Below are positions 1 through 45,198 of a stretch of DNA of 45,198 nt, in pieces (position 1 is the stretch's first letter; the number at the start of each line of letters is the position of its first letter). The stretch is from an uncultured Streptomycetaceae bacterium (lineage in GTDB: Bacteria; Pseudomonadota; Gammaproteobacteria; Burkholderiales; SG8-41). The notes below the pieces were generated by a model, which saw only the letters and a program-made list of their open reading frames with translations, ran no database searches and was not told the origin of the DNA. Location of the stretch: positions 12,182 to 57,379 of the forward strand of contig CAZMBS010000001.1 in NCBI GenBank assembly GCA_964564295.1. The letters are read 5' to 3'. Made by a program: the position numbers and the translations under genes.

Positions 1-968
1 TTCGCGTACAGGCGCAGGAAGCGTTCCTGGTCGGGACCGGGCGCATGAAATACCAGGTGCCGGAATCCCAGGTCCACATACGGACGGATCTTCTCGACGT
101 GTTCGTCAGGGTCGGTCGACACGATCCATCGCGTCGCGGTGCGCTCGAGCGGCAACGCGTCCGCGAGTTTCTCCATGGCCATCGGGTCTTCCACCGATAC
201 TTTTTCTTCCGGAGACAGGGCGAGCGCACCCCAATACCGGGTATCGTTCAGCGCGCGCCCGGCGTCGGTATCGAACGACACCTTCATCTCGATCATGCGA
301 TCGAAACCGGGTTTCCCGCTTCCGGAAATCCGGATGCCCTCGTCGACGTTGGGCAACAGCTTTTCCGTGTACAGCGTCATGGCCTTGCCGCTGGTGCAGA
401 TGAATCCGTCGCCGGCGCGCCCGGCGTACTTGGCAACCATGGGCCCGGCGGCCGCCACATAGATCGGAACCGGCCGCTCGGGACGATCGTAGATCGTGGC
501 ACGCTCGGTCCGGTAATACTCGCCCGCGAACGACACGCGGTCCTCGGCCCACAGTTTTCGTATCAGCGTGACCGACTCGCGCAACCGCGCAAACCGTTCC
601 TTCATTTCCGGCCAGGGCTGTCCCGTCGCCGGTACCTCGTTTAGCGACTCCCCGCTGCCCACGCCGAGCACGAAGCGGCCGGGAAACATCGCGCCCAGCG
701 TTCCGAACGCCTGCGCGACGATCGAGGGGTGATAGCGCATCGTGGGCGTCAGCACGCTCGTGCCGAGCATGACGCGCGAGGTCCGTGCCGCCGCCGCGCC
801 CAGCCAGGCGATGCACGACGGCGCATGCCCGCCGGTATGCCGCCACGGCTGAAAATGATCGCTCGTGAAAACAGAATCGAAGCCGCACTCTTCGGCGATG
901 CACGCGTAGCGCAACAACTCCGCCGGTCCGAACTGTTCGGCGGACGCCTTGTATCCCAGTTTGATCAT
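1..968 (-). CDS. fgd: F420-dependent glucose-6-phosphate (sugar-6-phosphate) dehydrogenase, LLM family; 3' end truncated by window edge
   Basis: Not in the ORF track because it has no stop in the window. Manual translation from ATG 968 gives [15 protein letters not shown]...[15 protein letters not shown]...[13 protein letters not shown]...GSGESLNE...[14 protein letters not shown]...[17 protein letters not shown]...[15 protein letters not shown], collinear with mycobacterial Fgd as I recall it. Confidence 0.93.
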
Positions 969-987
969 GCGGCGTATCCGGGGCGCA

Positions 988-1386
988 TCAGACCTGGCCG
1001 AGTTCCCGCGCGCGATCCTCCGCGGCCTTCAAGGCGCGCTGCCCCGACACGATGTACGTCATCATGCCGCCCAGCAATATGCAGAGGCTCACGACGTCCG
1101 CCACCTGCTGCACGGTGGCGCCCGCCTCGATCGCGAGCTTCGCGTGGCGGTCGGGATTCGGCTTGTGCGCGATGATTTCAACGGCCGTGGAGATGAGCTC
1201 GAGGTCTTTCAGACTCAGGCCTTTCGAGTCGTTCGACTCAAAGATCGTCCGGCGCAGCTGTATCCAGTCGACGAGCACTTCCGGACGGTAGCGGGCCAGG
1301 CGTTCGTAGGATTCAAGCACCTCGCCGTAATACGTCATGCTGTACTGCCGCACTGCGGCGAGGTCCGCGGCGTTGTCGCGTTCCAT
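988..1386 (-). CDS. Carboxymuconolactone decarboxylase (CMD/AhpD-like) family protein
   Basis: 132 aa with [13 protein letters not shown]...[16 protein letters not shown], a CMD-fold pattern. TAATG stop/start overlap with the upstream LLM gene. Confidence 0.75.
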
Positions 1387-2393
1387 TATTCAGTTCTCCC
1401 GGATTGGTTGGTGAATGCCGGCACGACTTCCGCCGCGATGAGGCGCATCATCGCCAGCTGATCTTCAAGACTTTTCGCGATGAATTTGAGCTCGAAGTGC
1501 GTCACGCCGATGTCCACGTAACGCTTCATTTGCCGTACGACCATCGCAGGTGTGCCGATGAAATTGCAGTCGAGCCCCTTCTGCATGTCCTTGTACCAGT
1601 ACATGAGCGTCGATTCGGCATCCCGGGTCGCCTCGCCGGCATCGCCGCGTATCAGCACGAATAGCTCGAGGCCGCAGACGACGTCGCGGCGGGACCGGCC
1701 GACGAGCGCCAGTTGCTGGTCGAGCTGGGGCAGCTTTTCCCGGTATACGTCCAGCGTGAAACCCGCTGGGAGGAACCCTTCGCCGTAAACCGCGACTCTG
1801 CGCATGGCGGCCTCGACCTTGCCGCAGATCCAGATCGGCAGCGCGCGCGGCTTGGGATAAAACTCGCCGTTTTGAAACCGTATCGTGCGGCCCTCGTGGG
1901 TCGTAAGGGGCGTCGCGTCGAATATGCGCCGAATGACCTCGAGGTACTCGTCGGTGCGTTTGCCGCGCTCGTTGAACGGCACCTGCATGACATCGAACTC
2001 ATCTGCCGACGCGCCGATGGTCACGCCCAGCATGAAGCGCCCGCCGGAGAGTTCGTGCAGCGTTGCCGCCTGCTTGGCGAGCAGACGCGGATCGCGGGTC
2101 GGCAACGTGATGCCGGTCGGAAACAAGCGAATGCGCCGGGTCAACGCAGCGGCATAGGTGAGCACCGTCATCGCCTCGTACAGCACGGGATCCTGATCGT
2201 CCCGGACCATGTCCACGCTGCCTGCGGAGAAATGCCGGTTCTGTTTGCGGCTGCGCGGGATATGGTCGTGGACGGTCAGGGCCTCGAAACCCAGCTGGTC
2301 CGCGAGAACTGCGACAGCCTCCACCGCAGGGCGCGTGGTATAGGGCCCGGAGTTGGGCAGACGGATGCTGAATGTGACGGGGTGGGTCGACAT
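1386..2393 (-). CDS. LLM-class (luciferase-like) oxidoreductase, probably F420-dependent
   Basis: AxLADQLGF..LTVHDH, AAALTRRIRL, RDPRLLAKQAATLHELSGGRFMLGV, RGKRTDEYLE, PKP..LPIWI motifs. Same operon as fgd. Confidence 0.85.
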   Translation of the reverse strand: MSTHPVTFSIRLPNSGPYTTRPAVEAVAVLADQLGFEALTVHDHIPRSRKQNRHFSAGSVDMVRDDQDPVLYEAMTVLTYAAALTRRIRLFPTGITLPTRDPRLLAKQAATLHELSGGRFMLGVTIGASADEFDVMQVPFNERGKRTDEYLEVIRRIFDATPLTTHEGRTIRFQNGEFYPKPRALPIWICGKVEAAMRRVAVYGEGFLPAGFTLDVYREKLPQLDQQLALVGRSRRDVVCGLELFVLIRGDAGEATRDAESTLMYWYKDMQKGLDCNFIGTPAMVVRQMKRYVDIGVTHFELKFIAKSLEDQLAMMRLIAAEVVPAFTNQSGRTE

Positions 2394-2449
2394 GTCGGCG
2401 CGGTTACGGTCGGTTCTTGGGAAAGGAATCGATACGGCGCAGGGCGGTG

Positions 2450-3439
2450 TCAGTCATCGGCCCGCGCTCCTGAAGCCTTGACCACTTCAGCCCAGCGCAC
2501 AGTTTCCTCGCGCACGAACGCGCCGAACTCCGACCTGCTGCTGCCGACGGGCGTCACACCGATGTCCAGCATGCGCGTCGCAACATCCGGCTGGCGCATG
2601 ATGCCCCGGATTTCACCGGACAGCCTGTCGAGGATGATCGCCGGCGTTCCGGCTGGAGCGAAGAATCCCTGCCACGACGTCACCTGGAAGCCGGGAACCG
2701 TTTCGCCCACCGTCGGCAACTCCGGCACGATGGGAGAGCGCTGCGCGCCGGTGACTGCGATCGCGCGCAGCTTTCCGATCTTTGCCTGCGCGTGCGCGGT
2801 TGGCATGTTGTCGAATGCTACGTGCACGTGTCCGCCCACGAGGTCAATGATCATCGGACCGCTGCCCTTGTACGGTACGTGCAGCATCGATGCTCCGGTT
2901 TTCATTTTAAGCAGCTCCGCCGCAAGGTGGCTCGAGGTGCCCGCGCCGCCCGCCGAGCCGTACGAGTACTTGCCCGGGTGGGTCTTGAGCATTTGAACCA
3001 ATTCCGGAACCGTCGCTGCCGTCACGCTGGGGTGGGCCACCAGCATCAGCGGCTGCGAGGTCGCGAGCGACAGTGGCGCAAAATCCTTCAGATTGTCGTA
3101 GCGCAACTTCCGATAAAGGGACGCGTTGATCGCATGGGTACCGACGGTCCCGACCATCAACGTATATCCGTCCGCCTGCGCCCTTGCGACGTATTCCGAA
3201 CCTACCGCACCGGCCGCCCCCGTCCGATGTTCGACGACGACCGGCTGGCCCAGTCGTTCGCTCAATTTCTGTCCGACGACACGTCCGACAAGATCGGCGA
3301 TTCCGCCCGGCGCATGCACGACGACGATGCGCAGCGGCTTTCTCGGGAACGGTTCCTCGCGCTGCGCGAGCGCCACGCCGCTACCGCCGGCGGCAACCAG
3401 CGCAATCAGCAGCCGCAAAAAACAGTTGTGATGGTGCAT
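2450..3439 (-). CDS. Bug/TctC family tripartite tricarboxylate transporter substrate-binding protein
   Basis: Signal peptide, FPRKPLRIVV..APGG..D, GAAGAVG, DGYTL, HVPYKGSGP. Start reassigned to ATG 3439 (GGAGG SD upstream); the ORF-track extension overlaps the LysR gene. Confidence 0.9.
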   Translation of the reverse strand: MHHHNCFLRLLIALVAAGGSGVALAQREEPFPRKPLRIVVVHAPGGIADLVGRVVGQKLSERLGQPVVVEHRTGAAGAVGSEYVARAQADGYTLMVGTVGTHAINASLYRKLRYDNLKDFAPLSLATSQPLMLVAHPSVTAATVPELVQMLKTHPGKYSYGSAGGAGTSSHLAAELLKMKTGASMLHVPYKGSGPMIIDLVGGHVHVAFDNMPTAHAQAKIGKLRAIAVTGAQRSPIVPELPTVGETVPGFQVTSWQGFFAPAGTPAIILDRLSGEIRGIMRQPDVATRMLDIGVTPVGSSRSEFGAFVREETVRWAEVVKASGARADD

Positions 3440-3571
3440 CACCCGACCTCCCGGCAACCGTGCGACGACGGGCGGCCGCCCGGCGCGGCTGCCGTGGTGG
3501 GTCGCAGACGTCTGCCCCGCCAAGCTATACGTCCAGTATAATAATCCATCTCGATTGATACATGGCAAGTA
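3440..3571. promoter_or_regulatory. Divergent promoter region between the tctC-LLM-CMD-fgd operon and the LysR gene
   Basis: AT-rich stretch with TATAAT at 3537-3542 and a perfect palindrome GCAGACGTCTGC at 3504-3515. Classic divergent LysR layout. Confidence 0.5.
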
Positions 3572-4510
3572 TTGTTCGTGGACTTGCGACAACTGACCCA
3601 GTTCGCTGCCGTGGCCGAGGCCAGAAGCTTCCGGCGCGCGGCTGAACGCCTGCAGATGACGCAACCGCCGTTGAGCTTCGCCGTGCGAAGGCTCGAAGAG
3701 GAGCTGAACGTCCGGTTATTCGATCGCACGAGCCGTTCCGTACAGTTGACCGAGGCCGGAAAGGCGCTGCTCGAAGGGTCGAGGACCGTCATGGCCGCGC
3801 TCGATGCCGCGATCCAGTCGACCCGGCGCACCGCGCAGGGGTTCGCCGGCAAACTTTCCGTGGCGCTGTCGGTGCCCTGGGCCTACGACGTCGCGCCAGC
3901 GGTGCTGCGAAATTTTCGCGCGACCCACCCGGGAGTCGTGATCGGGCTGCATGAAGTGCCGTCGTCCGAGCAGGCGAGGCGCATACTCAACGGCAGCCTG
4001 GACATCGGTTTTCTGCGACTTCCCGACCGCTACGCGACACCCGGCCTGAAGACCGTGACATTGCGCGAGGACCGCCTGACCGTGGTGTTGCCCGCGAAGC
4101 ATGCGCTCGCTGCACGCAAGACGTTGTCGCCACGGGATCTGCGCGACGCGGCATTTGTTCTGCCGCCATTCCCGGCCGTGCCGGGTATCGAGCGTTTCAG
4201 TTTCCGAATCCAGGTCGAGAATCTGTGCCTGGGGGCGGGCTACGCACCGCGAGTCGCGCAGGAAGCGAGCCAGATGCAGTCCATCGTCCGGCTGGTGGAA
4301 ACCGGGCTCGGGATTTCGATCGTGCCGGGCTGGGCGCGCACGCACTTTTCGTCGCGCGCCGTGTTCCGGAGATTGTCGTCGCCGTCGCCGGCGTGCCGTC
4401 TCCGCTTGGTGGCTGCCTGGAACGCCGACAATCCTTCCCCGGTATTGCAGGCGTTTGTCCAGGCTGTGCGCCGCGCCGAGGTGTCGTCGCGAGCGCGCCA
4501 GGTCGCATGA
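3572..4510 (+). CDS. LysR family transcriptional regulator
   Basis: N-terminal HTH DLRQLTQFAAVAEARSFRRAAERLQMTQPPLS..RRLEEEL..LFDRTSRSVQLTEAG plus substrate-binding domain. Start may be GTG 3578. Confidence 0.95.
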   Translation: MFVDLRQLTQFAAVAEARSFRRAAERLQMTQPPLSFAVRRLEEELNVRLFDRTSRSVQLTEAGKALLEGSRTVMAALDAAIQSTRRTAQGFAGKLSVALSVPWAYDVAPAVLRNFRATHPGVVIGLHEVPSSEQARRILNGSLDIGFLRLPDRYATPGLKTVTLREDRLTVVLPAKHALAARKTLSPRDLRDAAFVLPPFPAVPGIERFSFRIQVENLCLGAGYAPRVAQEASQMQSIVRLVETGLGISIVPGWARTHFSSRAVFRRLSSPSPACRLRLVAAWNADNPSPVLQAFVQAVRRAEVSSRARQVA

Positions 4511-4539
4511 ATGCAACTTCGCCGAAGGAGGGTATCGCC

Positions 4540-5598
4540 ATGCTCACATCGTGTTCGCAATTCCTCCGGTGCGGTGTTGCCCGAGTCGCCGGCAGCCCCA
4601 ACCCGGTTCGCCGAATCCGCTTGCTCAGCGCGACCGCGCTTGCGACCCTGATAGTCTCGGCTGGAGCCGCGCCGCCCGCTGCGCACGCGCAATCACCGGC
4701 ATATCCGTCCAAGACGGTGCGCGTTGTCGCGCCGTTCCCGCCCGGCGGGACCACCGATCTGGTGGGCCGGTTGATCGCGCAAGGACTGGGAAAGCGATTG
4801 GGGCAGAACTTCATCATCGACAATCGCGGCGGCGCCGGCGGCTTGATCGGAACGGACATCGTGGCGAAAGCGCAAGCCGATGGCTATACGCTGCTCGTCG
4901 GTGCATCGGGACCCATCATGATGCTCCCGGGACTCACGAAAAAACTTCCCTACGACGTGCTCGGGGACTTCGAGACGATCGCGAATATCGTGACGGTCCC
5001 CAACCTCATGGTCGTTCCGGCAGGCTCCCGGTTCGGCACGCTGAAAGATCTGATCGACCATGCGAAGTCGAATCCCGGTCGGGTACGATACGCGTCCGGC
5101 GGGGTGGGCTCCTCGGGCCATGTCGCGGGCGCCTTGCTGGGCTCGATCGCCGGCATCGACATGCAGCATGTGCCGTACCGTGGCGCGGGCGTCTCGCTCG
5201 TCGGCGTCATGGCGGGAGAGGCCGACGTGATATTCGTCAATCTGCCGTCCGCCCTGCCGCTCACGCGCAGCGGGAAACTGCGCGGGATCGTCGTCATGAG
5301 CGACAAACGGGCATCAACCGCGCCGGAATATCCCACGACGGCGGAAGTCGGCATGCCGCGATTCGTGCTCGGCAGTTCGACCGGGCTTCTCGCGCCAAAG
5401 CGCACATCGAGGAAGATCGTGGCGCTGCTCGATGAAGCGATGAAAGCATTGGCGGAGGAACCCGAGTACACCAGGCAATTCGCACTCTCTGGCGCCGACA
5501 TCGATTTCATGAACGCGGCGCGGTACCGCGCATTTATCTCCGCCGAAATCGCGCGCTTCACGGATCTGGGCAAAAAAGCAAACATCACGGCGGAATAA
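4540..5598 (+). CDS. Bug/TctC family substrate-binding protein
   Basis: YPSKTVRVVAPFPPGGTTD, NRGGAGG, DGYTL, HVPYRGAG. AAGGAGG SD before ATG 4540. Confidence 0.9.
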   Translation: MLTSCSQFLRCGVARVAGSPNPVRRIRLLSATALATLIVSAGAAPPAAHAQSPAYPSKTVRVVAPFPPGGTTDLVGRLIAQGLGKRLGQNFIIDNRGGAGGLIGTDIVAKAQADGYTLLVGASGPIMMLPGLTKKLPYDVLGDFETIANIVTVPNLMVVPAGSRFGTLKDLIDHAKSNPGRVRYASGGVGSSGHVAGALLGSIAGIDMQHVPYRGAGVSLVGVMAGEADVIFVNLPSALPLTRSGKLRGIVVMSDKRASTAPEYPTTAEVGMPRFVLGSSTGLLAPKRTSRKIVALLDEAMKALAEEPEYTRQFALSGADIDFMNAARYRAFISAEIARFTDLGKKANITAE

Positions 5599-5636
5599 GC
5601 GATCGCAATTCGGGAAACGGGAAAAGGAACAGCCTC

Positions 5637-7019
5637 ATGGCGAAAATCGACATGTTGTTTACCGGTGGAGAAATACTGACCCCTGCGGGCAGAATCCACG
5701 CAACGCTGGGGGTGGAGAATGGAAGAATCGCGTTCATTTCCTCCGCTCACTGGACACCACCGGCCGCCGAAACGGTCGACGTTTCCGGGAAGTTGCTGGT
5801 TCCCGGATTCATCGACTCGCACGTTCATTTTCGGGATCCGGGACTCACCTATAAGGAAGATTTTCTGACCGGCTCGCGCGCGGCGGCAGCTGGCGGTGTC
5901 ACGTGCGTGGCGGACATGCCGAACAACAAGCCGGCGCTGACGACAGCCGCGCGGTTTCGTGACAAGCTCGACGCCATACGGTCGAAAGCCGTTGTCGACT
6001 ATGCGCTTTACGGCGGATCGACGAACCACGCGGAAATTCCCGGCATGCTGCGGGCGGGCGCCATCGGCATCAAGGTGTTCATGGTCTGCGACCCCAAGTC
6101 GCACTATCCGCACGACCCCGAGCTTTTCACGGGCGATCATGGCGTGCTGTACGACACGCTGAAAGTCGTGGGCGCCGAAGGCGGCTACTGCGCGGTTCAC
6201 CCCACGAATCAGCAGATATTCGAACACGAATCCCGCAAGCGCTGGGCCGCCGGGACGCTTGCCCCGCGCGATTTCATGAATGCGTATTTCGGGGAAAATT
6301 ACGTTTCCGATCATACGGCAATCGTCACTTTGATCGAAATGGCGCGCGCCTCGGGCACGCGCACTCACATTCTTCATCTGCGTTCGGAGCCGGGCATACG
6401 CGCGATTCAGCACGCCAAAGAGGAGGGCGTGCCGGTGACCATGGAGGTCAACCCGAAGTACATGTTCACCAGCTTCGAGGACCTCGACAGGAAAGGGCCG
6501 CTATGCGTGCCGTATGCCATGACTCCGGCCGGCCAGCAGATGCTGCTGGACTGCGCGAACCGCGGCTGGGTGGATGTGTACGGGACGGATCACGCGCCGC
6601 ACACTAAGGAAGAGATGGAGCCGGGTTGGAAAGACGCCTGGAGCATCCCGTTCGGCAATCCACAGGTGGAGCACTACATCACGGCGCTGATGACGCACGT
6701 GAGCGCCGGGCGCATGAGTCTGGAAACGCTGGTTCGCCTGTGTGCGGAGAATCCGGCCAAAGTCATGGGCGTGTGGCCGCGCAAGGGCATCATTCAGGTC
6801 GATTCGGACGCGGATATCACGGTGCTCGACCTCGATGCGCGTGGAACGCTGTCCGACAAGGACGTGTACACGAAGGTAGGTTGGTCGCCTTATTCGGGCC
6901 TCCAGTACCATGGCCGGCCGGTGATGACGGTCGTGCGGGGCCGCATCGTCATGCGGGATGGAAAAGTCATCGGCGAACCGGGTTGGGGAAGGCTGGTCCC
7001 CGGGAGGGCCGCAAAATGA
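5637..7019 (+). CDS. Cyclic amidohydrolase (dihydroorotase/allantoinase/dihydropyrimidinase superfamily)
   Basis: PGFIDSHVHFRDPG, GSRAAAAGGVT..DMPN, carboxylatable Lys (GIKVFM), HILH, GTDHAPH, ENPAK, DADI metal-centre motifs. Confidence 0.88.
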   Translation: MAKIDMLFTGGEILTPAGRIHATLGVENGRIAFISSAHWTPPAAETVDVSGKLLVPGFIDSHVHFRDPGLTYKEDFLTGSRAAAAGGVTCVADMPNNKPALTTAARFRDKLDAIRSKAVVDYALYGGSTNHAEIPGMLRAGAIGIKVFMVCDPKSHYPHDPELFTGDHGVLYDTLKVVGAEGGYCAVHPTNQQIFEHESRKRWAAGTLAPRDFMNAYFGENYVSDHTAIVTLIEMARASGTRTHILHLRSEPGIRAIQHAKEEGVPVTMEVNPKYMFTSFEDLDRKGPLCVPYAMTPAGQQMLLDCANRGWVDVYGTDHAPHTKEEMEPGWKDAWSIPFGNPQVEHYITALMTHVSAGRMSLETLVRLCAENPAKVMGVWPRKGIIQVDSDADITVLDLDARGTLSDKDVYTKVGWSPYSGLQYHGRPVMTVVRGRIVMRDGKVIGEPGWGRLVPGRAAK

Positions 7020-7393
7020 GCGCGGACGTGGAGGTGCCGGGCTGTTCGCCCGAGGTGGTATCCGATGCAACGCGCATATTGTCCGAGGCGCGGGCTCAAT
7101 GCGCTGCCCTGGGCGTTCCGCCGGAGGCGTTCGCGGCGTTGCTGTTGCCGGAGGCCCTTCTCGCCATGATGGTGGCTGGCATGCGGCAGGAAGAGGTCGA
7201 GGATGAATTTGCGCGCTTCGCGCGGGAGAACATTCCGGCGTGGTTTCTGCAGGTGAAACGCACCGCCGGCTATTGCGACTGCGAGCGCGAAGCGCGGGGT
7301 GAACATGCGGCGTACTGCGACGTTCGGCGGGCGCCCGGATTGCCGCGGCCGCTGTTCGACAGGATCCGGCAACAAATCGGCGCCGAAAAATGA
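7016..7393 (+). CDS. Hypothetical protein (125 aa) with a C-terminal CxC...H...C cluster
   Basis: ATGA overlap with the amidohydrolase stop; fills the gap up to the convergent pgl. Confidence 0.6.
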   Translation: MSADVEVPGCSPEVVSDATRILSEARAQCAALGVPPEAFAALLLPEALLAMMVAGMRQEEVEDEFARFARENIPAWFLQVKRTAGYCDCEREARGEHAAYCDVRRAPGLPRPLFDRIRQQIGAEK

Positions 7394-7424
7394 CGGGAGG
7401 AGCGCCGACTGCCGGTTTCAGTTA

Positions 7425-8150
7425 TCAAACGCCGGCAAGCGCTGCCTCGTCCACGAATACTTGCACCGGGCAGCGAATCCGGCTTGCAGGAATGGACGGG
7501 TCGCGCTGCAACAGGCGTTTCACCGCAGCCGCCTTGTCGGCGCCGGTAATTACGAACATGACCTGACGGGCGCGATTGAGCGCGGGAAAGGTGAGGGTCA
7601 TGCGCCGCGTTCCCTGGTACAGGCCGGTGACGGCGACGTCCGATCCGGTCATATCCAGGACCGGATCACCGGGAACCAAAGAAGCTGTGTGTCCGTCGGC
7701 CCCCAACCCCAATTGAACCAGATCCAGCACCGGGGGAGATCCCGCGATTTCCGCGAGCGTTGTCGCGTACAGTGCCGCCGCCGCGACGGGATCGGCAGCC
7801 GTCACCGGCATGGCGTGCACGTTGTCGGGCGGGACGGGCGCGCGATCCAGAAAACTCTGCTGAAGTTGCGTCAGATTTCGATCCGGATGCCGGTCGGGTG
7901 CCAGGCGCTCGTCCACCTGGACCACATGTACGGCATTCCACGGCAAGTCTTCTGCCGCGAGCACGCGCAGCATGATCCAGGGCGTGCGGCCGCCACTGAC
8001 ACCCAGCACGAAACGGCCACGATTCCGTGCGGCTGTTCTTGCCGCCTCGGCGATGCGCCTCGCCGCCGCACGCGCAACTGTTTCAGCGTCGGGATGGACC
8101 TGCGTATCCCACACCGGATTACCGATGCGCATTTCGGGCGCATCAGCCAT
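7425..8150 (-). CDS. pgl: 6-phosphogluconolactonase
   Basis: [38 protein letters not shown] motifs. Start reassigned to ATG 8150, overlapping the gnd stop. Confidence 0.9.
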
Positions 8151-9162
8151 CCGAGCGTTTCTCCAGATGCCCGCCGAAAGCATGCCGCATCGCCGACAAG
8201 ACCTTGTTCTGAAACTCCGCGTTTCCACGTGAGCTGAACCGCCCGAACAGTGCAGCAGCGAGGACCGGCGTCGGCACGCCCTCGTCGATGCCCGCCTTGA
8301 TCGTCCAGCGCCCTTCGCCCGAGTCCGAGACGCGCCCGGCAAATCCGGTCAGCCCCGGGTCCTTGTGCAGCGCGGCAGCAGTGAGATCCAGCAGCCAGGA
8401 ACTGATCACGCTGCCGCGACGCCACACTTCGGCGATGTCCGCGACGTTGAAATCGTACTGATAGTGCTCCGGATGAGACAGCGGCGTGGTTTCCGCATCG
8501 GCCGCGTGCGAGATCAAGCCCGCATTTGCCGCCTGCAGTATGCCGAATCCTTCCGCATACGCGGCCATGACGCCGTACTCGATCCCATTGTGAATCATCT
8601 TGACAAAATGTCCGGCGCCATTTGGGCCGCAGTGCAGGTAACCCGCCTCCACGGCGCCGCCGGTGCCGGCGCGTCCCGGCGTGCGCGGGATTTCGCCCCG
8701 ACCCGGAGAAAGCGTCGCGAATATGGCATCGAGGTGACGAACCGTCGCTGCATCGCCACCAATCATCATGCAATAACCGCGTTCGAGGCCCCAGACACCG
8801 CCGCTGGTGCCGACATCAACGTAGCGTATGCCCTTGGCGGCGAGCGCTTTCGCGCGCCGCAAGTCGTCGACGTAGTGCGAGTTGCCGCCGTCGATCAGGA
8901 TGTCCCCCGTGCCCAGGTGCGGCACCAGCGCATCGATTGTTTCGTCCACCACACCGGCCGGAACCATGAGCCAGATCGCGCGGGGCGATTCGAGCCGCCT
9001 GGCCAGCTCCTGCATGCTTGCCGCGCCGGTCACGTTGTCGAGCTTCAATCCCGCGACCGCGTCGGCCGATCGGTCGAACGCCACGCAGCGATGCCCTCCC
9101 GCCGCGAGCCGGCGCACCATGTTGGCGCCCATGCGCCCCAGTCCTATCATTCCGAGTTGCAT
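8143..9162 (-). CDS. gnd: Decarboxylating 6-phosphogluconate dehydrogenase, short (YqeC/GntZ) type
   Basis: [58 protein letters not shown]. Confidence 0.95.
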
Positions 9163-9239: not shown

Positions 9240-10220
9240 ATGGCATTTCGAGTCTTTGCCGCGGTATGGTCCGTCGTGTTGTCGCTTGTCAGCCCCGCCG
9301 GGATCCCGGAAAGCGCCGCGCAAAATTATCCTGTTCGATCGATTCGCCTCGTTGCGCCTTCCGGGGCCGGAGGGCCCGTGGATGTCGTTTGCAGGGTGGT
9401 GGCTCAGCGCCTTGGAGAAGTGCTCGGTCAACAGGTCGTGGTCGAAAATCGCGTAGGCGCTGCCGGGCTGATCGGCACCGACATAGTTGTTCGCAGCGCG
9501 CCCGACGGCTATACGCTGCTCTGCGGATTCTCGGGGCCGCTCGCGATCGTGCCGAACCTCAACGCCAAGACGCCGTACCAGGTGTCACGCGACCTTCAGC
9601 CCATCACTCAGGTTGCGGTGGCGCCGTACGTGCTGCTCACGCATCCGAGCGTTCCCGCCAGAAACGTGAAGGAACTGGTGGCGCTTGCCAAGGCACGACC
9701 GGGGAAAATGAACTTCGGCTCCGGCGGCGTGGGCGTGGGCATTCACATGGCCGGCGAATTGTTCAAGGTCGCTGCCGGCGTAAACATCGTGCACGTGCCG
9801 TACGGCGGCGCGGCGCCCGCGATGACTGCGCTCATGGCCGGCGAAGTGGATATGATGTTCAACGGGCTTTCGGCTGCGGCATCGCACATGACGAGCAACA
9901 AGGTGCGCGCGATCGCCGTGGGCGGCGAGAAGCGCGCGGCACTTTTCCCCGAAATTCCGACGATTCAGGAATCCGGCTACGAGTTCAAGACCGGCGGGTG
10001 GTACGGCCTGCTTGCACCGCGCGGCACGCCGCAGCCGGTTGTCAATATGCTGCAGCAGGCAACCGTCAAGGCCATGGATTCAGCCGACACGCGGCAGACG
10101 CTGGCCAAGATCGTAACGGAGGTCGTGACGGGGACGCCGCAGGCGTTCGCGGACCTGATCAGTCAGGAACACGCATTATGGGCCCGGGTCATCAAGGCTG
10201 CGGGGATCAACGTGCAATAG
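9240..10220 (+). CDS. Bug/TctC family substrate-binding protein
   Basis: Signal peptide, YPVRSIRLV...GG, ENRVGAAG, PDGYTL, HVPY. TAAGGAG SD. Confidence 0.9.
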   Translation: MAFRVFAAVWSVVLSLVSPAGIPESAAQNYPVRSIRLVAPSGAGGPVDVVCRVVAQRLGEVLGQQVVVENRVGAAGLIGTDIVVRSAPDGYTLLCGFSGPLAIVPNLNAKTPYQVSRDLQPITQVAVAPYVLLTHPSVPARNVKELVALAKARPGKMNFGSGGVGVGIHMAGELFKVAAGVNIVHVPYGGAAPAMTALMAGEVDMMFNGLSAAASHMTSNKVRAIAVGGEKRAALFPEIPTIQESGYEFKTGGWYGLLAPRGTPQPVVNMLQQATVKAMDSADTRQTLAKIVTEVVTGTPQAFADLISQEHALWARVIKAAGINVQ

Positions 10221-17495: not shown

Positions 17496-18263
17496 ATGTC
17501 GTACCGATCGATTAACCTGCTGCTTCGAAGCCATGTTCCGGCGGCAGTGCTGGCCACGTATCTTTGCGGTCGCGCGAACCGCGCATGGCGCCGCGTGTTT
17601 GCCGATCGCGAGCGGAGCGAGCGGACAGACGATGCGCGGCGCGCTTTCGAAAAATGCACCGAATCCGGGCGTTACTCGAACACCTGGTTCGACGGCAGCA
17701 TCGCGCTGTGGGTCGATTGGCTGGCGCCGCTGAAGGCTTCGGCCCGGGCGCCCGCGTTGCTTGAAGTCGGGTCGTGGGAAGGCCGGTCGACCACGTTTCT
17801 GCTGAGCTACCTGCCGCAGGCGCAACTTACCGCTGTGGATACCTGGGAGGGCGGCATAGAGCACCAGGAGCGCCCGGATCTTGCGACGCTGGAACAACGG
17901 TTTGATCTCAATCTGTCCGCATTCCGTGACCGCCTGACCAAGCGCAAGGGACTGTCGTCCGTCGTGCTCGCGCAACTGGCGGCGGAGGGAAAAGAGCGTT
18001 TCGATTTCATTTTCGTCGACGGATCGCATTTTGCCGACGATGTCCTGGTCGACGCCGTGCTGGCGTGGCAGCTGCTGCGCGAAGGCGGTGTCGTGGTATT
18101 CGACGACTACCTGTGGAAGCTCGAGCGCTACGGTTGGAAGAGAAATCCGGCGCCGGCGATCAACCTGTTTCTGCGACTCAATCGCGGCGATTACGACCTC
18201 TTGCACGTCGGGCACCAGCTCGCCATCCGCAAGTCGGTCTCGCTGCGCCGCTACTTGTCCTGA
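17496..18263 (+). CDS. Class I SAM-dependent methyltransferase (Methyltransf_24-like)
   Basis: LEVGSWEGRST, VDTW, FDFIFVDGSH, GGVVVFDDY. Confidence 0.85.
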   Translation: MSYRSINLLLRSHVPAAVLATYLCGRANRAWRRVFADRERSERTDDARRAFEKCTESGRYSNTWFDGSIALWVDWLAPLKASARAPALLEVGSWEGRSTTFLLSYLPQAQLTAVDTWEGGIEHQERPDLATLEQRFDLNLSAFRDRLTKRKGLSSVVLAQLAAEGKERFDFIFVDGSHFADDVLVDAVLAWQLLREGGVVVFDDYLWKLERYGWKRNPAPAINLFLRLNRGDYDLLHVGHQLAIRKSVSLRRYLS

Positions 18264-19507
18264 GGCGGCGGTTGTCCGCTCGCCGCATTTCCGCGCGGCG
18301 CGAGCAGTGCGCCCAGGAACAGTCCGATCAGGTGACCTTCCGAAAACGTGCGGAAATGCGAGCTGAACAGGCTTGTCACACACCAGATCGCGAGCGCGCC
18401 GCCGGCGATCCATCCGTAGGGACTCAAGCGCGCCGCACAGAATCCCGTCACGAGGATGGCGCAGAACGCGAGCAGTCCGACAACACCCGATTGCATCGCA
18501 ATAAACAGGTACTGGTTGTGCGGGTCGGTGGTCGGCGTCGCACGCCAGTCGTTGTAGCGTCCGCTTACGACTTTCGCATATTCCCTGCCGAAACTGCCGG
18601 TGCCATAGCCGACCAGCGGTCGCTCCAGTATCAATTCCACGGCGGTTCTGTAAAACACGACGCGTGCGCCCATCGACGTGAGTTCGGCGCTCTGGTCGGC
18701 ATGGGCCACTTCGTTTACTGCCTGCGTTATCCGGTCGCGAAACTGGGGCGCTGTTGCGTAAGCGATCAGGCCGGACACGACGAGTATCAACACCGAAACG
18801 TGCATGCGGCGCCAGCCCCATATCATGACGACGGACACGAAGGTGGCGATGGCGAGCGCCACGTAACCGCTGCGGCCGGGCGTGACGTAAATGATATTGA
18901 TCGCGAAAGCGAGCGCGGTTGCGCCGAGCACCCATGGCAGCCGGCCTGTGGCGCCGCGGGCAAAGTGCGCCGCGCACAGAATGGCCAGACTGAACACCAT
19001 GCCCTGGACCGAGTGGTTCTGGAGCACCACGCCCTGAATCGTGCCCGCGATCTGGTTGGACTTGGGCGGCACGACGCCAAGCACGGTGAGAAAGGAAATC
19101 GTCACGCCGATAGCGGCGACCACGAGAAACGCCGCCACAAACCGCTGCTGCCACTGTTCGGGCGCGAACAGACCCAGCAACAGCAGTGCGAACGCGAGTT
19201 TGCGCCAGCCCCATAGGTCGTGCCAGCGTTCCGCCCACGTCGCCGAACCGTACAGCATGCCGATGGCAGCGAGCGCGAGAAAAGCGGTCAACGCGATTCC
19301 GAACGGATTTCGGAGACTCGCCCGCAGCGTGGATAGCGCCTCGCCGGACATCATCCAGCTCGCGAGCATGACAGCGCAGGCGAGGCTCGTCAGCGCAGTG
19401 GAAAAGGTTGCAGCGCAGGCGCCGCTGATGGCCGCTCCGCGGCTCACCGCGAGACAGCGGGCGCGCCATGCGGGGCCGGCGGGCAATGCGATTCCGGGAT
19501 TATTCAA
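18251..19507 (-). CDS. waaL: O-antigen ligase (Wzy_C) family protein
   Basis: Multi-TM protein with GRSGY, SMGARV, PLVGYGTGSF, DPHNQYL...GVVGL. Start uncertain; TTG 19507 chosen to avoid overlap with the GT25 gene. Confidence 0.82.
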   Translation of the reverse strand: MNNPGIALPAGPAWRARCLAVSRGAAISGACAATFSTALTSLACAVMLASWMMSGEALSTLRASLRNPFGIALTAFLALAAIGMLYGSATWAERWHDLWGWRKLAFALLLLGLFAPEQWQQRFVAAFLVVAAIGVTISFLTVLGVVPPKSNQIAGTIQGVVLQNHSVQGMVFSLAILCAAHFARGATGRLPWVLGATALAFAINIIYVTPGRSGYVALAIATFVSVVMIWGWRRMHVSVLILVVSGLIAYATAPQFRDRITQAVNEVAHADQSAELTSMGARVVFYRTAVELILERPLVGYGTGSFGREYAKVVSGRYNDWRATPTTDPHNQYLFIAMQSGVVGLLAFCAILVTGFCAARLSPYGWIAGGALAIWCVTSLFSSHFRTFSEGHLIGLFLGALLAPRGNAASGQPPPQDK

Positions 19508-19553
19508 ATTGGTATCCGATTTCCGGGAGCCCTGGTGCCGCGCGACCGGAGTC

Positions 19554-20279
19554 TCAGCGCCACAGCTGATACAGGTATTTTCGGCGCAGCTTCTCCCACC
19601 GGAATATGAACGCCTGCACCCAGGTGGGCCATTGTGAGTCGGGCTCAAGGGTGGTGTCGAACAAGCCGGTCTTGCTGCCTTGTTCGACGACGGGGTCTTC
19701 GAGCCACAACATCATGATGCCGGCATCGCGGTCGATGATTTCGAACTGATTGTCTATCGGATTCGAGACGCGATGTACCGAAACCCAGTCGAGCCGGGCT
19801 TGCGCGGCGGGCATGCCGATGATGTAGGAGTCTGCGAGCCGGCCGCGAGCCCCGGCGTAGAGCCGCTGGCCGGGCCGGCGCATGCTGTGCGGAGTGTAGA
19901 AGTTGCCCCCGCAACCGATAAACACGACGGAGGGCTGCGGGAACCGGGGCCACTCGGACAGTGCGGCACTGACGCCGTCCGCGAATCCTTCTGCGAGCAA
20001 CGCATCATCTTCGAGAACGAGGGCCTGTTGTTGCCCGCGCGCGACGATGCGGCGCAATGCCGTAAGGTGTTTGAGGCCGCATGACTTCTGGCGGATATTC
20101 AGATCACCCTTGAACGTCTGTGCCTCGATTTCCGGTGTAATGTCTTCCGTATCCCACGCGTCAATGAACTCGGGGACGAGTCCGAATCGCGCGAGCTGCG
20201 TGCTGACGCTGCGGCGGCGCGCATCGGAGGTGCGGACGCTGACCACGTAGACGGCATCAAGGCCGGAGGAAGCGCTCAT
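19554..20279 (-). CDS. Glycosyltransferase family 25 (LPS biosynthesis)
   Basis: C-terminal part of ORF 19554..21071: VYVVS...RRR, FIDA, SCGLKH, LVLEDDA, PID. Confidence 0.85.
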   Translation of the reverse strand: MSASSGLDAVYVVSVRTSDARRRSVSTQLARFGLVPEFIDAWDTEDITPEIEAQTFKGDLNIRQKSCGLKHLTALRRIVARGQQQALVLEDDALLAEGFADGVSAALSEWPRFPQPSVVFIGCGGNFYTPHSMRRPGQRLYAGARGRLADSYIIGMPAAQARLDWVSVHRVSNPIDNQFEIIDRDAGIMMLWLEDPVVEQGSKTGLFDTTLEPDSQWPTWVQAFIFRWEKLRRKYLYQLWR

Positions 20280-20341
20280 GGATGGGTATGCGTTTTCAAT
20301 GACCGTGCGCCGCCACTGATACCGTGGTGGCGCGATTGTCG

Positions 20342-21439
20342 CTACGCCGGCGCATTGTACCGCGCATCCAGCAGTCGTTCCGCCGCATGAATTACACGCG
20401 CAGCGGACAATTGCTGCAGGCAATCGCTCAAGCTGCTGATGTGCCGCTCGCAGCCTTCCAGATGGCAGGGCACGCAGGCGCCGGTGCCCTGCAGCAGGAT
20501 CACGTTGCCCCTGTGCTGGGTGCCGCACCGCTGCCAGGGGTTCTCGGATGCCGGGTGCCCCTTGGGCCATGGTCCCCATTTGACCGCATTGGTCGGACCG
20601 AAAAGAGCCAGTACCGGGACTCCGAGTGCCGCGGCCATATGCGTCATCGCGGTGTCCGGGCCGACGTAGATGCGCGACCGGCCGGCAAGGCAGCTTGCCG
20701 CCGGCAGGGAGATTTTGCCGGCAAGATTGACCGTGTCGGCGGGCAGGGCCGCAGCGATGCGCTGCACGTACTGCAACTCTTCCGTCTCCGAGCCGCCGGT
20801 CAGCACGATACGCAGGCCACGCGCGGCGAGATGCTGCGCGAGTGCAGCCCAGCCATCGGCGCGCCACATTTTGTAGCTGAACTTCGGAAATACATGCAGC
20901 ACGGCAAACGCGGTATGCCTGGTGTCGAACCCCGCGGCGGCGGCAAGTTCGGCCTCGTGCCGCGGTTGCCACGCGGGCACGACTCTCGCGCGAGGCGCGA
21001 TGCCCAGGATGTCCGCAAGCGCGAGGTGCGTGCGTACCGTGTGTGTGTTGAGCCCGTCGAAATCCGCCCACCGGTCAAGCAGGCGACGCTTCCAATGCTG
21101 TTGTGCTTCGTCGATCAGCAAACCGGCGCGCCAGCGTCCGGCCGCCCAAGCGTAAAGCGTCGGACGGTCACCCGGAACCAGCGATACGGCCGCGTCGTAC
21201 CGGTTCCATAAACCGGCAATAAAAACAACATGTTGCAAAACTCCGGGTCGCTCGCGTACTGCGATGACCCGGCGTACGCGCGGATGCGCCTGTACCACGC
21301 TCCCGGTTCCATTGAACACCAGCATGTCAATCGCGGTGTCGGTCCAGGCCTCGGCGATGGACTCGATGAGCGGCGTCGCGAGCAGCACGTCGCCGATCCG
21401 GCGCGTAATCACGAGCAGGATGTTTGCGGGCGGCTTCAT
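20342..21439 (-). CDS. GT9 family LPS heptosyltransferase (RfaQ/WaaQ-like)
   Basis: ILLVITRRIGDVLLATPLI, YKMW, NLAGKISL, GPDTAMTHMAAALGVPVLALFGPT. Confidence 0.88.
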   Translation of the reverse strand: MKPPANILLVITRRIGDVLLATPLIESIAEAWTDTAIDMLVFNGTGSVVQAHPRVRRVIAVRERPGVLQHVVFIAGLWNRYDAAVSLVPGDRPTLYAWAAGRWRAGLLIDEAQQHWKRRLLDRWADFDGLNTHTVRTHLALADILGIAPRARVVPAWQPRHEAELAAAAGFDTRHTAFAVLHVFPKFSYKMWRADGWAALAQHLAARGLRIVLTGGSETEELQYVQRIAAALPADTVNLAGKISLPAASCLAGRSRIYVGPDTAMTHMAAALGVPVLALFGPTNAVKWGPWPKGHPASENPWQRCGTQHRGNVILLQGTGACVPCHLEGCERHISSLSDCLQQLSAARVIHAAERLLDARYNAPA

Positions 21440-22251
21440 TACAGATATCGATCGACGCCGACGCGCGCGCGCCTGCGGCCGGAAGCGATGAGTTCGTCCA
21501 GCAGCCGCTGATTGTCGTCGAACCCGCGCTTGTCCGCTTCGCGATGCCACAGGTGAAACACGGAAGCGGCGAAGCGGGCGCTCTTGTGCCGGATTCCCGC
21601 GTGGATGAGACGAATCGCCAGATCGGAATCTTCGAGCCCCCATTTTCCCGCAAAGGACTCGTCGAATCCGTTCACTGCGACCAGGTCCTCGCGCCACGCC
21701 GAGAGGTTGCAGGTTTTCACGCCCTTCCAGCGGTCAGGCGCACGCTTGCGGAACGCGCCGTCCGGCAGCCGCAGCAACGGCAGCCAGCGATTGATATCGC
21801 GTTTCAACCAGGAGCCAAACCAGCGCCCCGTGCTTCGATCGTGCAACGGCAGGCATTGCGCCAGGGCGCGCCTTGTGAATCCTTCGCTCAACAGCACGCG
21901 ATTGCCCGACAGGAACCACCCCGGCTCCGCGAGCCGCCGGTGCTGCGCCAGGAAATCGCGCGGCGGGACGCAATCGTGATCCGTAAACACGATGTATTCC
22001 GCATCGGTCGCTGCGATCCCGCGATTGCGCATCACGGATGCGCCGAAACCGCGGTTTTCCTGCCACAGATGGGTCACCCGGAACGGCGCGCGCGCGGCGT
22101 ATTCGGACACCACGGCGCGAACCGTGTCCTGCGAGCCGTCGTCTGCGACGATGATCTCAAAATCGCCCGATGCCTGCTGCAGATAACCTTCCAGCAGCGC
22201 GGCGAGAGTATCGGGGCGGTTATAGGCCGCGACGACAACCGCGATCTTCAC
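21439..22251 (-). CDS. Glycosyltransferase family 2
   Basis: AYNRP, EIIVADDGS, RNRG, FTDHDC, NGFDE, WGLEDSD. GTG start overlaps the upstream stop. Confidence 0.88.
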   Translation of the reverse strand: MKIAVVVAAYNRPDTLAALLEGYLQQASGDFEIIVADDGSQDTVRAVVSEYAARAPFRVTHLWQENRGFGASVMRNRGIAATDAEYIVFTDHDCVPPRDFLAQHRRLAEPGWFLSGNRVLLSEGFTRRALAQCLPLHDRSTGRWFGSWLKRDINRWLPLLRLPDGAFRKRAPDRWKGVKTCNLSAWREDLVAVNGFDESFAGKWGLEDSDLAIRLIHAGIRHKSARFAASVFHLWHREADKRGFDDNQRLLDELIASGRRRARVGVDRYL

Positions 22252-23000: not shown

Positions 23001-23081
23001 ATCACCGTCCTGGGAACTTCCGGCCCGCCCCGCGTCCAGAACGGAGACGTCGTCGCCACGGACACCCGCGGTACAGCCATG

Positions 23082-26893: not shown

Positions 26894-27072
26894 AACACGA
26901 TCCAAATGTTGCACCGGCCGCGGCGCGATGGGAACGGAGATATGCGCACAAGCCACGTTCGCGGTATGCGGTAAAACGCTATCATGACGTTCGGGAATCC
27001 GGACCGGTGAATACGATTCGCAGTGGGCCGTAGCATAATGACTTTCCGGGCCGCGAGGTAGGCTGTCACTCG

Positions 27073-27825: not shown

Positions 27826-27856
27826 CGCGCCGATACGCTTTGGAGCCCGGGCGGAA

Positions 27857-28867: not shown

Positions 28868-28950
28868 TTGAAGACCGCGGAGCACCGCCGGGGTGCGCGA
28901 GATATAATATGATGATTATGCTGGGTAATTTCCTCCCGGGACTTTGAATC

Positions 28951-29757: not shown

Positions 29758-29764
29758 GGCAAAA

Positions 29765-31297: not shown

Positions 31298-31318
31298 CCG
31301 AACGCCGTGGATGCGATC

Positions 31319-31999: not shown

Positions 32000-32079
32000 A
32001 ACGAATCGTCGCGTGTTATCGAGCGGTCGCTCGATGCAGGGGGATCGGCGCGACGAACGAAAGCGGCGCCGGGCGGGAT

Positions 32080-33078: not shown

Positions 33079-33123
33079 GTTTTGTCCGTGAGCTATCCGG
33101 GCGTGCGCGCCCGGGAAATTTCG

Positions 33124-33639: not shown

Positions 33640-33652
33640 GGTATCCCGGACA

Positions 33653-36227: not shown

Positions 36228-36395
36228 GAAACGTCAACTTCCTGCATTTCGCCAAACAACCGATTTGCCAATTGAATACGCCGCTTACCCGTTTGGCGAG
36301 CGGGCCAAGGTGAACAAAAGGGCGCAAGGCATCATGGTGCCGCCTGCTGCGGATTATAATGGAAAACGTGATCAAAGCCTCAGACGCAACCTGAG

Positions 36396-45196: not shown

Positions 45197-45198
45197 AT

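Follow-up and report, generated by a model that had tools for sequence, protein, structure and literature searches.

What F420 is used for in Proteobacteria is a question which the locus described here raises in a specific form. In the part of a 2021 review considered here (PMC8498797), the reason why Proteobacteria make this cofactor is given as an open question, the betaproteobacterial F420 producers are described as encoding only Fno, and no F420-dependent enzyme is said to have been studied experimentally, as of 2021, in bacteria outside the Actinobacteria. The stretch of DNA analyzed (referred to below as the window) is 45,198 nucleotides long and corresponds to C1:12182-57379 in a 3.35-Mb metagenome-assembled genome (MAG) with a completeness of 76%, the host of which is probably a soil betaproteobacterium. 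The left-hand part of the window carries genes encoding an oxidoreductase of the luciferase-like monooxygenase (LLM) family, a protein of the carboxymuconolactone decarboxylase (CMD) family, a cyclic amidohydrolase, a small protein called the orphan, a LysR regulator and two TctC proteins, together with fgd, pgl and a gnd-like gene. In a previous reading of these genes based on the letters of the DNA (the sequence-only reading), it was proposed that an imported substrate, possibly an N-heterocycle or a cyclic amide, is reduced by the LLM with F420H2, that the amidohydrolase then opens the ring and that Fgd, Pgl and Gnd recharge the cofactor. The presence of F420 synthesis, the model score of the LLM and the co-occurrence of the genes all came out in favour of this proposal, and we lean on balance towards it: the F420H2-driven reduction of a carboxylated N-heterocycle would be followed by hydrolytic opening of the ring, F420 synthesis and recharge by Fgd being encoded in the same exchanged block. 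What the analysis shows is the identity of the genes, the structure of the operon, the presence of the F420 synthesis genes, the conserved co-occurrence of the genes of the module and the swap at the locus; what we infer in this scheme is the use of F420H2 by the LLM, the substrate, the direction in which the reactions run and their order, and the parts played by the CMD protein and the orphan.

The genes in question belong to a 14.2-kb block (C1:7100-21343), the right-hand two thirds of which make up the first 9.2 kb of the window (Table 1). All the genes named in the sequence-only reading were recovered where it had placed them, in the list of open reading frames (ORFs) and by profile scans, and the TAATG overlap by which the CMD gene is translationally coupled to that of the LLM, as well as the 19-bp gap between the CMD gene and fgd, can be read directly in the DNA as it had claimed. 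The leftward operon was also seen correctly as regards the genes it had listed, but not as regards its end: the transcription unit does not stop at fgd and runs on beyond the window, in the order tctC-LLM-CMD-fgd-cofE-cofD-cofC-fbiC.

Table 1. Features of the block. Positions are those of the window; bit scores are followed, after "vs", by the cut-off of the model.
Feature	Position	Strand	Evidence and remarks
fgd	1-968	-	TIGR03554 478.6 bits vs 420; runs off left edge
CMD-family (AhpD-like fold) protein, 132 aa	988-1386	-	PF02627 30.2 bits vs 23
LLM oxidoreductase, 335 aa	1386-2393	-	TIGR03619 177.4 bits vs 166.9
tctC 1	2450-3439 (ORF 2450-3664)	-	PF03401 223.7 bits; first gene of leftward operon
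Divergent control region	3440-3571	.	conserved LysR-type box and promoter-like site
lysR	3572-4510	+	PF00126 79.7 bits, PF03466 137.1 bits
tctC 2	about 4540-5598 (ORF from 4225)	+	PF03401 217 bits; start approximate
Binuclear-metal cyclic amidohydrolase, 460 aa	5637-7019	+	no NCBIfam cut-off reached
Orphan, 125 aa, all-helical	7016-7393	+	ATG overlaps amidohydrolase stop (ATGA)
pgl (6-phosphogluconolactonase)	7425 to about 8150	-	TIGR01198 185.2 bits vs 124.45; start 8132, 8150 or 8183
gnd-like, short-form 6-phosphogluconate dehydrogenase	8143-9162	-	NF007161 455.5 bits vs 271; TIGR00872 408.1 bits vs 297.2
cofE	downstream of fgd	-	PF01996 258 bits vs 25
cofD	downstream of fgd	-	TIGR01819 288.2 bits vs 257.45
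cofC	downstream of fgd	-	TIGR03552 133.3 bits vs 105
fbiC (fused, cofGH)	downstream of fgd	-	NF006687 1160.1 bits vs 1018

Immediately after fgd, and transcribed in the same direction, come the four genes cofE, cofD, cofC and fbiC (C1:7100-11974). All of them score above the cut-offs of their models and, on the strength of these scores, they make up a full F420 biosynthesis set in the operon containing fgd, which is what a search of the genome had been expected to show if the proposal was correct. The first 322 residues of Fgd are encoded in the window, and the gene extends for a further 217 bp past its left edge, to C1:11965. Over residues 2-325, Fgd matches FGD1 of Rhodococcus jostii (PDB 5lxe, E 7.9e-137) and FGD1 of Mycobacterium tuberculosis (3b4y, E 3.6e-133), and the SDHFQPWRH and GxGExLNE blocks, which we take to hold the catalytic His40, Trp44 and Glu109 of the mycobacterial enzyme, are conserved in both alignments. 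Judging by its sequence, Fgd is a close homologue of the characterized actinobacterial FGDs. No Fno was found above cut-off in the assembly. The fgd ORF encodes 394 amino acids, including a low-complexity C-terminal tail of ~65 residues which extends past the family model and the solved FGDs (L004:11965-12170); the final 10 nucleotides of fgd overlap the start codon of cofE.

The cofactor preference of the LLM was assessed by comparing its scores on the models of F420-type and flavin mononucleotide (FMN)-type families. The LLM passes the cut-off of TIGR03619, the model of the Rv2161c-type F420-dependent LLMs, and its other scores were 89.6 bits on TIGR03571, 62.2 bits on SsuD (TIGR03565), the best of the explicitly FMN-type models, and 43.6 bits on RutA (TIGR03612), the cut-off of which is 498.3. 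This comparison, which the sequence-only reading had suggested making, led us to predict that the LLM depends on F420. In 41 related genomes, which are non-independent samples and include one unpublished genome (G006) counted in the tallies only, TIGR03619 proteins above cut-off are present in 10 of the 15 carrying cofD above cut-off and in none of the 26 others. When compared with the solved F420 enzymes, the LLM comes nearer to Mer, a reductase (49.6 bits), than to FGD, a dehydrogenase (30.4 bits). The cof or fgd genes adjoin that of the LLM in four loci, namely in this genome and in the metagenome loci L021, L023 and L026, and a more distant homologue of the LLM is located directly 3' of fbiC in L029. 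The orthologues of the LLM form a tight group (61-84% identity), after which the identity drops to at most 45%. The predicted complex between the LLM and the CMD protein scored 0.00, which weighs neither for nor against their binding.

Whether the genes belong together was examined by scanning metagenome contigs with an alignment of LLM orthologues, which yielded 15 loci, 12 of which carry orthologues; the counts given here are those of the loci with the gene among the loci whose sequence reaches far enough. The CMD gene is located 3' of that of the LLM in 7/7 loci and is followed by the amidohydrolase gene in 4/4 (75-83% identity), directly in two cases and after a tctC gene in the two others, while the orphan is located 3' of the amidohydrolase in 2/2. 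A divergent lysR gene is present upstream in 10 of 11 loci (LysR orthologues with 46-65% identity), the exception being L026, which has fbiC in this place. F420 genes are adjacent to the module in L021 (cofD), L023 (fgd with 76% identity, cofC, and fbiC with 71%) and L026 (fbiC), and both of the orthologue loci longer than 12 kb carry them; the nine remaining loci end inside the module or just after it, and in L027 the upstream part shows housekeeping genes only. The amidohydrolase gene lies mostly within the LLM operon elsewhere, and in this genome the tctC-amidohydrolase-orphan unit sits across lysR. The module-bearing loci also differ in their GC content (57-67%). LysR, LLM, CMD protein, amidohydrolase and orphan recur in independent metagenome loci, as one would expect from the sequence-only reading, and their arrangement is more than a matter of chance.

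All the orthologues in the LLM group come from metagenomes or MAGs; none was found when 40 relatives (best identity 36%), 400 genomes belonging to the order and the 158 other genomes of the family were searched, and the sole match obtained when genome contigs were scanned with the single LLM protein was that of a distant actinomycete (27% identity). Two of the metagenome loci show further features. At L023:5743-8907, cofC and fbiC occupy one open frame of 1054 amino acids, which is either a CofC-FbiC fusion or two genes with no stop between them. At L021:286-5781, near the module and cofD, there are genes for the large subunit of a molybdenum hydroxylase (xanthine dehydrogenase family), a creatinase/M24 peptidase, another LLM and an IclR regulator; in this one locus, the neighbouring genes hint at N-heterocycle catabolism.

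The class of substrate can be approached through the amidohydrolase. Its metal ligands are complete as compared with the binuclear-metal set of the dihydroorotases (HxH, carbamylated Lys, two His and Asp), since the DSHVH, IGIKVF, AVH, ILH and GTDHAPH segments align with those of hydantoinase and allantoinase, and in 32 family members (39-100% identity), H64, K146, H188 and H247 at the metal centre are invariant, H62 and D318 are nearly so, and R66, N96 and H322 are invariant as well. The best full-length match among the solved structures is the L-hydantoinase of Arthrobacter (1gkr, E 8.7e-70). In the segment lining the pocket (residues 46-111, GFIDSHVHFRDPG...MPNN), the dihydroorotases (E 1e-16) come before allantoinase (E 1e-12) and L-hydantoinase (E 3.5e-8). 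The TDHAPH motif matches the dihydroorotases 2z00 and 2gwn, and in the E. coli dihydroorotase, Asn and His presumably bind the carboxylate of the substrate. Arg66 aligns with Arg65 of the Aquifex aeolicus dihydroorotase (Arg20 in E. coli). In the part of the study on this subject considered here (PMC12524618), a residue of the Arg65 type is described as being essential for substrate binding, and its absence is used to reject mis-annotated dihydroorotases. Since this substrate-binding Arg is kept, the substrate is likely to be a cyclic ureide or amide with a carboxyl group, dihydroorotate being an example. According to the alignments, the scaffold resembles that of L-hydantoinase and the substrate pocket is of the dihydroorotase type, and the enzyme is likely to be a dedicated hydrolase acting on a saturated, carboxyl-bearing cyclic ureide or amide; that orotate is the specific substrate of the pathway is much less certain than the general mechanism.

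The orthologues of the amidohydrolase for which a name is given come from Bradyrhizobium sp. NP1, from Ferrovibrio sp. MS7 and from MAGs bearing the labels Vicinamibacterales, Casimicrobiaceae and Burkholderiales, and its distribution is therefore sparse but wide; none was found in 400 genomes sampled across the phylum. Two biosynthetic roles were considered and dropped. The amidohydrolase is not taken to be the housekeeping dihydroorotase because the genome carries other pyrC genes elsewhere, namely two of the pyrC_multi type which pass the cut-off and a fragment of a type II gene. Nor is the LLM taken to be an F420-dependent dihydroorotate dehydrogenase in pyrimidine biosynthesis, since the reaction would run uphill, an argument which makes use of the potential of the orotate/dihydroorotate couple. 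The published value for F420, as given in the part of the source considered here, is -340 mV.

The block replaces another F420 locus present at the same site in related genomes. CofD above cut-off was found in 12 of the 24 genomes of the family; among 16 genomes representing the other families of the order, two had it and a third, G037, was just below the cut-off. In the nine such loci examined, the order is LLM2-tctC-fbiC-fno-cofE-cofD-cofC-tctC, with some variation in the order, LLM2 being a second LLM gene; the Fno encoded between fbiC and cofE scores 196.4 bits on TIGR01915 (cut-off 149.8) in L045 and has orthologues in 9/9 loci. The left flank of the block is collinear with that of the relatives (LLM2, 74-79% identity; tctC, 60-71%), and so is the right flank (tctC at 9240-10220 in the window, 58-77%; GST; Amidohydro_2, 77-81%; an EVE-domain protein; a TonB receptor; ABC, 66-69%). 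The interval enclosed by the two flanks measures about 5.4-5.9 kb in the relatives and 14.2 kb in this genome, where the F420 genes are inverted and reordered, fgd is present instead of fno, and the catabolic module and pgl-gnd have been added. Both junctions are tight, that of the left side measuring 7 bp and that of the right side 77 bp. In a maximum likelihood tree of 11 FbiC sequences (the midpoint root serving for drawing only), the FbiC of this genome is the sister of that of the module-bearing locus L023 with a support of 100/99, and those of six Fno-type loci of the family form a separate clade, also supported at 100/99. The exchange of fno for fgd at one locus has the appearance of a natural rewiring, by which F420 would receive its electrons from glucose-6-phosphate instead of NADPH.

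A second genome of the family, G016 (L054, G016:C5:5500-25424), carries fbiC-cofE-cofD-cofC-fgd (fgd with 73% identity) with no fno in the cluster, and its contig ends after fgd. The F420 locus of the family is always flanked by LLM2 and tctC (L004:1-7092, L040-L048), the LLM2 protein scoring 149.9 bits on TIGR03619, below the cut-off. Near LLM2, this genome and some others carry genes for a TRZ/ATZ-type amidohydrolase (deaminase-like), an MmgE/PrpD protein and a family III CoA-transferase, and more than 100 clusters of close LLM2 homologues occur in soil metagenomes. LLM2 may be part of another pathway linked to F420, one which would be far commoner in these bacteria.

LLM2 also provides the taxonomic evidence, which was drawn from the names of its homologues because rpoB was not found in the assembly. 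Among the 120 LLM2 homologues listed, the eight bearing NCBI names (78-81% identity) were labelled "Betaproteobacteria bacterium" in three cases, "Burkholderiales bacterium" in four and "bacterium" in one. About 350 TctC matches were obtained in the 3.35-Mb assembly when it was searched by tblastn with one TctC query, which amounts to an extreme expansion, and six tctC genes are located within 22 kb around the module. The names of the LLM2 homologues and the number of TctC matches bear out the suggestion that the DNA came from a probable betaproteobacterium, and these sequence comparisons support a betaproteobacterial host.

The control of the module can be read in part from the spacer between lysR and the leftward operon. 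An element consisting of GTATCAAT-N~12-GATTATATTGGAC is kept there in all of the 11 aligned loci, window included, and overlaps in the window with a promoter-like site (TTGCCA-16-GATTAT, minus strand, 3568-3541); we regard this conserved element as a putative LysR operator. The likely start of the first TctC protein is at 3439, where a signal-peptide-like stretch (MHHHNCFLRLL...) begins. TctC proteins are the periplasmic binding proteins of the tripartite tricarboxylate transporter family, and a tctC gene recurs inside the operon in L020, L021 and L026.

Two small proteins accompany the LLM and the amidohydrolase. The CMD protein has a single Cys and an invariant block AHK.NPDRHA, and it does not have the CxxC which is the redox motif of the AhpD-type peroxidases. 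Its best match among the solved structures is 2qeu, an uncharacterized putative carboxymuconolactone decarboxylase (E 6.8e-7), and our guess is that it may act as a decarboxylase or an isomerase on an intermediate of the pathway. The orphan is a real gene and is kept 3' of the amidohydrolase in both of the other loci that reach it, L021 (49% identity) and L023 (64%); its third-position GC content (0.76) is equal to that of the neighbouring amidohydrolase gene. The family is rare, with 34 cluster representatives among 1.84 billion proteins. Four of its residues (E46, L49, C87 and C89) are invariant, and a fifth, C29, is almost invariant. The AlphaFold2 model of the orphan shows five helices with a pLDDT of 89.6 and gave no PDB match at E <= 0.001 with Foldseek; no family was found in Pfam or NCBIfam apart from one weak match with DUF2695 (E 0.16), and no match in the ESM Atlas. 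Its Cys-bearing helical structure might be that of a metal-handling or redox helper of the amidohydrolase, although this is again a guess.

The contribution of pgl and gnd to the recharging of F420, as proposed in the sequence-only reading, finds partial support. Both genes lie inside the swapped block, the other change in which is that of fgd for fno, and Pgl acts on the product of Fgd; their link to fgd has been seen in this genome only. The pgl-gnd pair is convergent with the tctC-amidohydrolase-orphan unit, and gnd forms the right end of the block. They are the only homologues of each gene found in the assembly, zwf being present on another contig, and the gnd-like gene is patchily distributed in the family (4/24 genomes) and was not found in G016, the other fgd genome, which is 82% complete. 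We consider the link between pgl-gnd and fgd to be no more than plausible.

Taken as a pathway, the mechanism that we propose would begin with the synthesis of F420 by the products of cofE, cofD, cofC and fbiC. Fgd would reduce F420 with glucose-6-phosphate, and Pgl and Gnd would take the lactone product on to ribulose-5-phosphate. LysR, acting at the conserved operator, would switch on the TctC uptake, the LLM, the CMD protein, the amidohydrolase and the small cysteine-bearing helical protein. The LLM, with F420H2 as its hydride donor, would saturate a double bond of a carboxylated N-heterocycle, the model case being the conversion of orotate into dihydroorotate, and the dihydroorotase-like amidohydrolase would open the ring once it is saturated. 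The CMD protein and the small protein would act on or beside these two steps. A more specific version, which we put forward as tentative and rather doubtful, is that the block is a horizontally exchanged cassette, in which a new F420H2-dependent LLM reductase (an F420H2:orotate reductase, for example) replaces the flavin- or NAD(P)H-dependent enzyme known from reductive ureide catabolism and feeds a new dihydroorotase-like hydrolase with two new accessory proteins, the F420 synthesis genes and the Fgd-Pgl-Gnd loop travelling along; since synthesis and recharging would travel with the pathway, the host could use F420 for a single pathway.

Several observations weigh against the proposed mechanism. 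The solved structure nearest to the LLM by sequence is that of the FMN-dependent sulfonate monooxygenase MsuD (E 3.1e-14), followed by Mer (E 3e-12) and FGD (E 2e-6), and when the AlphaFold2 model of the LLM (pLDDT 88.9) was compared with known structures by Foldseek, ranks 1-12 were occupied by FMN-dependent sulfonate monooxygenases, with MsuD, SsuD and SfnG first; the F420 enzymes FGD, Adf and Mer enter the list from rank 38 with equal TM-scores (0.74-0.78). Since the fold cannot separate the FMN relatives from the F420 relatives, the assignment of F420 to the LLM rests on the family model and the genomic context; the margin above the TIGR03619 cut-off is just 10.5 bits, and to our knowledge the F420 label of this model is based on genomic association and not on assays. 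The amidohydrolase is below every NCBIfam cut-off, the closest being that of TIGR00857 (pyrC_multi; 275.7 vs 279.05), with NF006559, another dihydroorotase model, at 280.9 vs 482, the hydantoinase/dihydropyrimidinase model TIGR02033 at 245.2 vs 393.25 and the allantoinase model TIGR03178 at 270.5 vs 357.85, and because the curated dihydroorotase cut-offs were missed, it was not filed as a dihydroorotase. The module contains no carbamoylase or ureidosuccinase with which the ureide pathway could be finished. Orthology does not extend to the tctC genes, which have 27-29% identity from one locus to another, and since such genes are so numerous, the presence of a tctC neighbour carries little weight. 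Neither pgl nor gnd was found beside the module in the other loci, as far as these loci reach, and as they are the sole copies in the assembly, with zwf elsewhere, they may be housekeeping genes. Lastly, the source genome is a MAG which is only 76% complete.

The structural matches of the LLM are also what speaks for a different enzyme, an FMN-dependent two-component monooxygenase of the RutA or SsuD type making an oxidative attack on the ring, in which case the F420 neighbours would be incidental: MsuD, SsuD and SfnG are the closest solved relatives by both sequence and fold, RutA, which cleaves the pyrimidine ring, is also listed, and the TIGR03619 cut-off is only just exceeded. We nevertheless hold this to be unlikely: no flavin reductase was found among the genes of the module in any of the module-bearing loci, four independent loci have F420 genes next to that of the LLM, only genomes with cofD were seen to encode TIGR03619 proteins above cut-off, the FMN-type models give at most 62 bits as compared with 177 for TIGR03619, and the length of 335 amino acids is that of the F420-type LLMs. 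If the LLM does use F420, it might still do so as a dehydrogenase or after the opening of the ring, for example by oxidizing or reducing the opened product, hydrolysis coming first and the redox step second. The LLM family comprises both F420 reductases and F420 dehydrogenases, according to the part of the source considered here (PMC6279831), the order of the reactions is not readable from that of the genes, and the CMD protein could decarboxylate an oxidized product. This order seems quite improbable to us, however, since the dedicated, F420-reducing Fgd in the LLM operon argues for a pathway consuming F420H2, the LLM is nearer to Mer than to FGD or Adf, and the pocket of the amidohydrolase matches enzymes acting on saturated rings such as dihydroorotate.

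A further possibility is that the module serves the cofactor itself, by salvaging, modifying or degrading deazaflavins or their pyrimidine precursors. Both here and in L023, one operon contains the module together with cof genes, and FO is built from ribitylamino-uracil, a pyrimidine, according to the part of the review considered above (PMC8498797); but nine related loci have full F420 clusters without the module, an orthologue of the LLM was found in 0 of the 158 other family genomes, and LysR and the periplasmic binding proteins point to an imported inducer, which makes this explanation very unlikely. It could finally be argued that there is no common pathway at all, and that unrelated genes, including ordinary pentose-phosphate genes in the case of pgl-gnd, have gathered in a variable region. 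The absence of pgl and gnd from the other module loci and their status as sole copies in the assembly would fit this view, as would the patchy occurrence of the gnd-like gene and the presence of tctC everywhere in the genome. The core set and the conserved operator recur, however, in independent loci with GC contents ranging from 57 to 67%, translational coupling joins the LLM gene with that of the CMD protein, and likewise the amidohydrolase gene with the orphan, and pgl-gnd is inside a swapped block in which fno has given way to fgd, so that we attach hardly any credence to this explanation.

The pathway in which an F420H2-dependent reduction is followed by ring opening has counterparts among known systems. 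In reductive pyrimidine catabolism, dihydropyrimidine dehydrogenase, dihydropyrimidinase and beta-ureidopropionase (PydA-PydB-PydC) act in succession, and the fermentation of orotate by Clostridium oroticum proceeds via dihydroorotate and dihydroorotase. As in these systems, a ring double bond would be reduced before a binuclear-metal cyclic amidohydrolase opens the ring, and the amidohydrolase of the module keeps the Arg, MPN and DHAPH motifs of dihydroorotase; the difference is that the reductase is a TIM-barrel protein of the LLM family, predicted to use F420H2, and not an NAD(P)H/flavin/Fe-S enzyme, and that the module has two extra conserved small proteins. No dihydropyrimidine dehydrogenase, beta-ureidopropionase or carbamoylase was found in the block or the related loci, and although the module would work like the PydA-PydB-PydC pathway, it is not a member of it. 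In the fermentation of nicotinate by Eubacterium barkeri, 6-hydroxynicotinate reductase (a ferredoxin-dependent Fe-S flavoprotein) is followed by enamidase, so that, as proposed for the module, the reduction of a carboxylated N-heterocycle precedes its opening by an enzyme of the amidohydrolase superfamily. A molybdenum hydroxylase gene is located near the module in L021, the single locus on which this link is based, and enamidase does not figure among the 60 best of the 76 matches between the amidohydrolase and solved structures. The Rut pathway likewise has an enzyme with the LLM fold, the FMN-dependent RutA, acting on a pyrimidine ring, and RutA is among the distant matches of the LLM; its model, however, is missed by a wide score difference (43.6 vs 498.3 bits), no RutB-F partners or flavin reductase accompany the LLM, and its neighbours are F420 genes.

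As regards the supply of reduced cofactor, the likeness is with the actinobacterial Fgd systems, in which the mycobacterial and rhodococcal FGD1 feed FDOR and LLM reductases: in both cases glucose-6-phosphate would reduce F420 and a reductase would spend the F420H2. Here, however, the host appears to be a betaproteobacterium, and the supplier, the consumer, F420 synthesis, the regulator and transport are encoded in one block. Comparison with the Fno-type locus of the family shows the same chromosomal site, the same flanks and the same four biosynthesis genes, whereas this genome has fgd in the place of fno, an inverted and altered gene order, and the addition of LLM-CMD-lysR-tctC-amidohydrolase-orphan and pgl-gnd.

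Some features of the rest of the window were also recorded. A surface-polysaccharide cluster is located at 17496-25879, with genes for a methyltransferase, a Wzy_C O-antigen ligase-like protein and a Polysacc_synt_2 dehydratase, and the AT skew is unusual (0.233) in the bin at 24-26 kb. From 26000 to 45198, the GC content drops from about 0.63 to 0.54-0.60 and few ORFs passed the gene filter based on third-position GC content (GC3); this part of the window may be foreign or differently composed. No tRNA gene and no tandem repeat were found in the window.

The sequence-only reading knew of no description of such a module, and we found none in print: in the full-text literature, supplementary operon lists being outside the scope of the search, F420 was not linked with any hydantoinase, dihydroorotase or allantoinase-type enzyme, with orotate or 6-hydroxynicotinate, or with an operon of this kind. 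The component families are all known, and it is their combination which is not described in the searchable literature. The block offers concrete candidates, namely Fgd, one consumer of F420H2 (the LLM), the next enzyme (the dihydroorotase-like hydrolase) and a regulator with its operator, and the class of substrate has been narrowed down to carboxylated cyclic ureides or amides. If the proposed mechanism is true, it would add a new type of reaction to those of the F420 enzymes, which are of biocatalytic interest, as well as two small protein families to which no function is assigned, one with the CMD fold but without cysteine redox chemistry and the other helical, cysteine-bearing and without any known fold relative. 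It would also give F420 a concrete, testable role in a bacterial group in which none is known.

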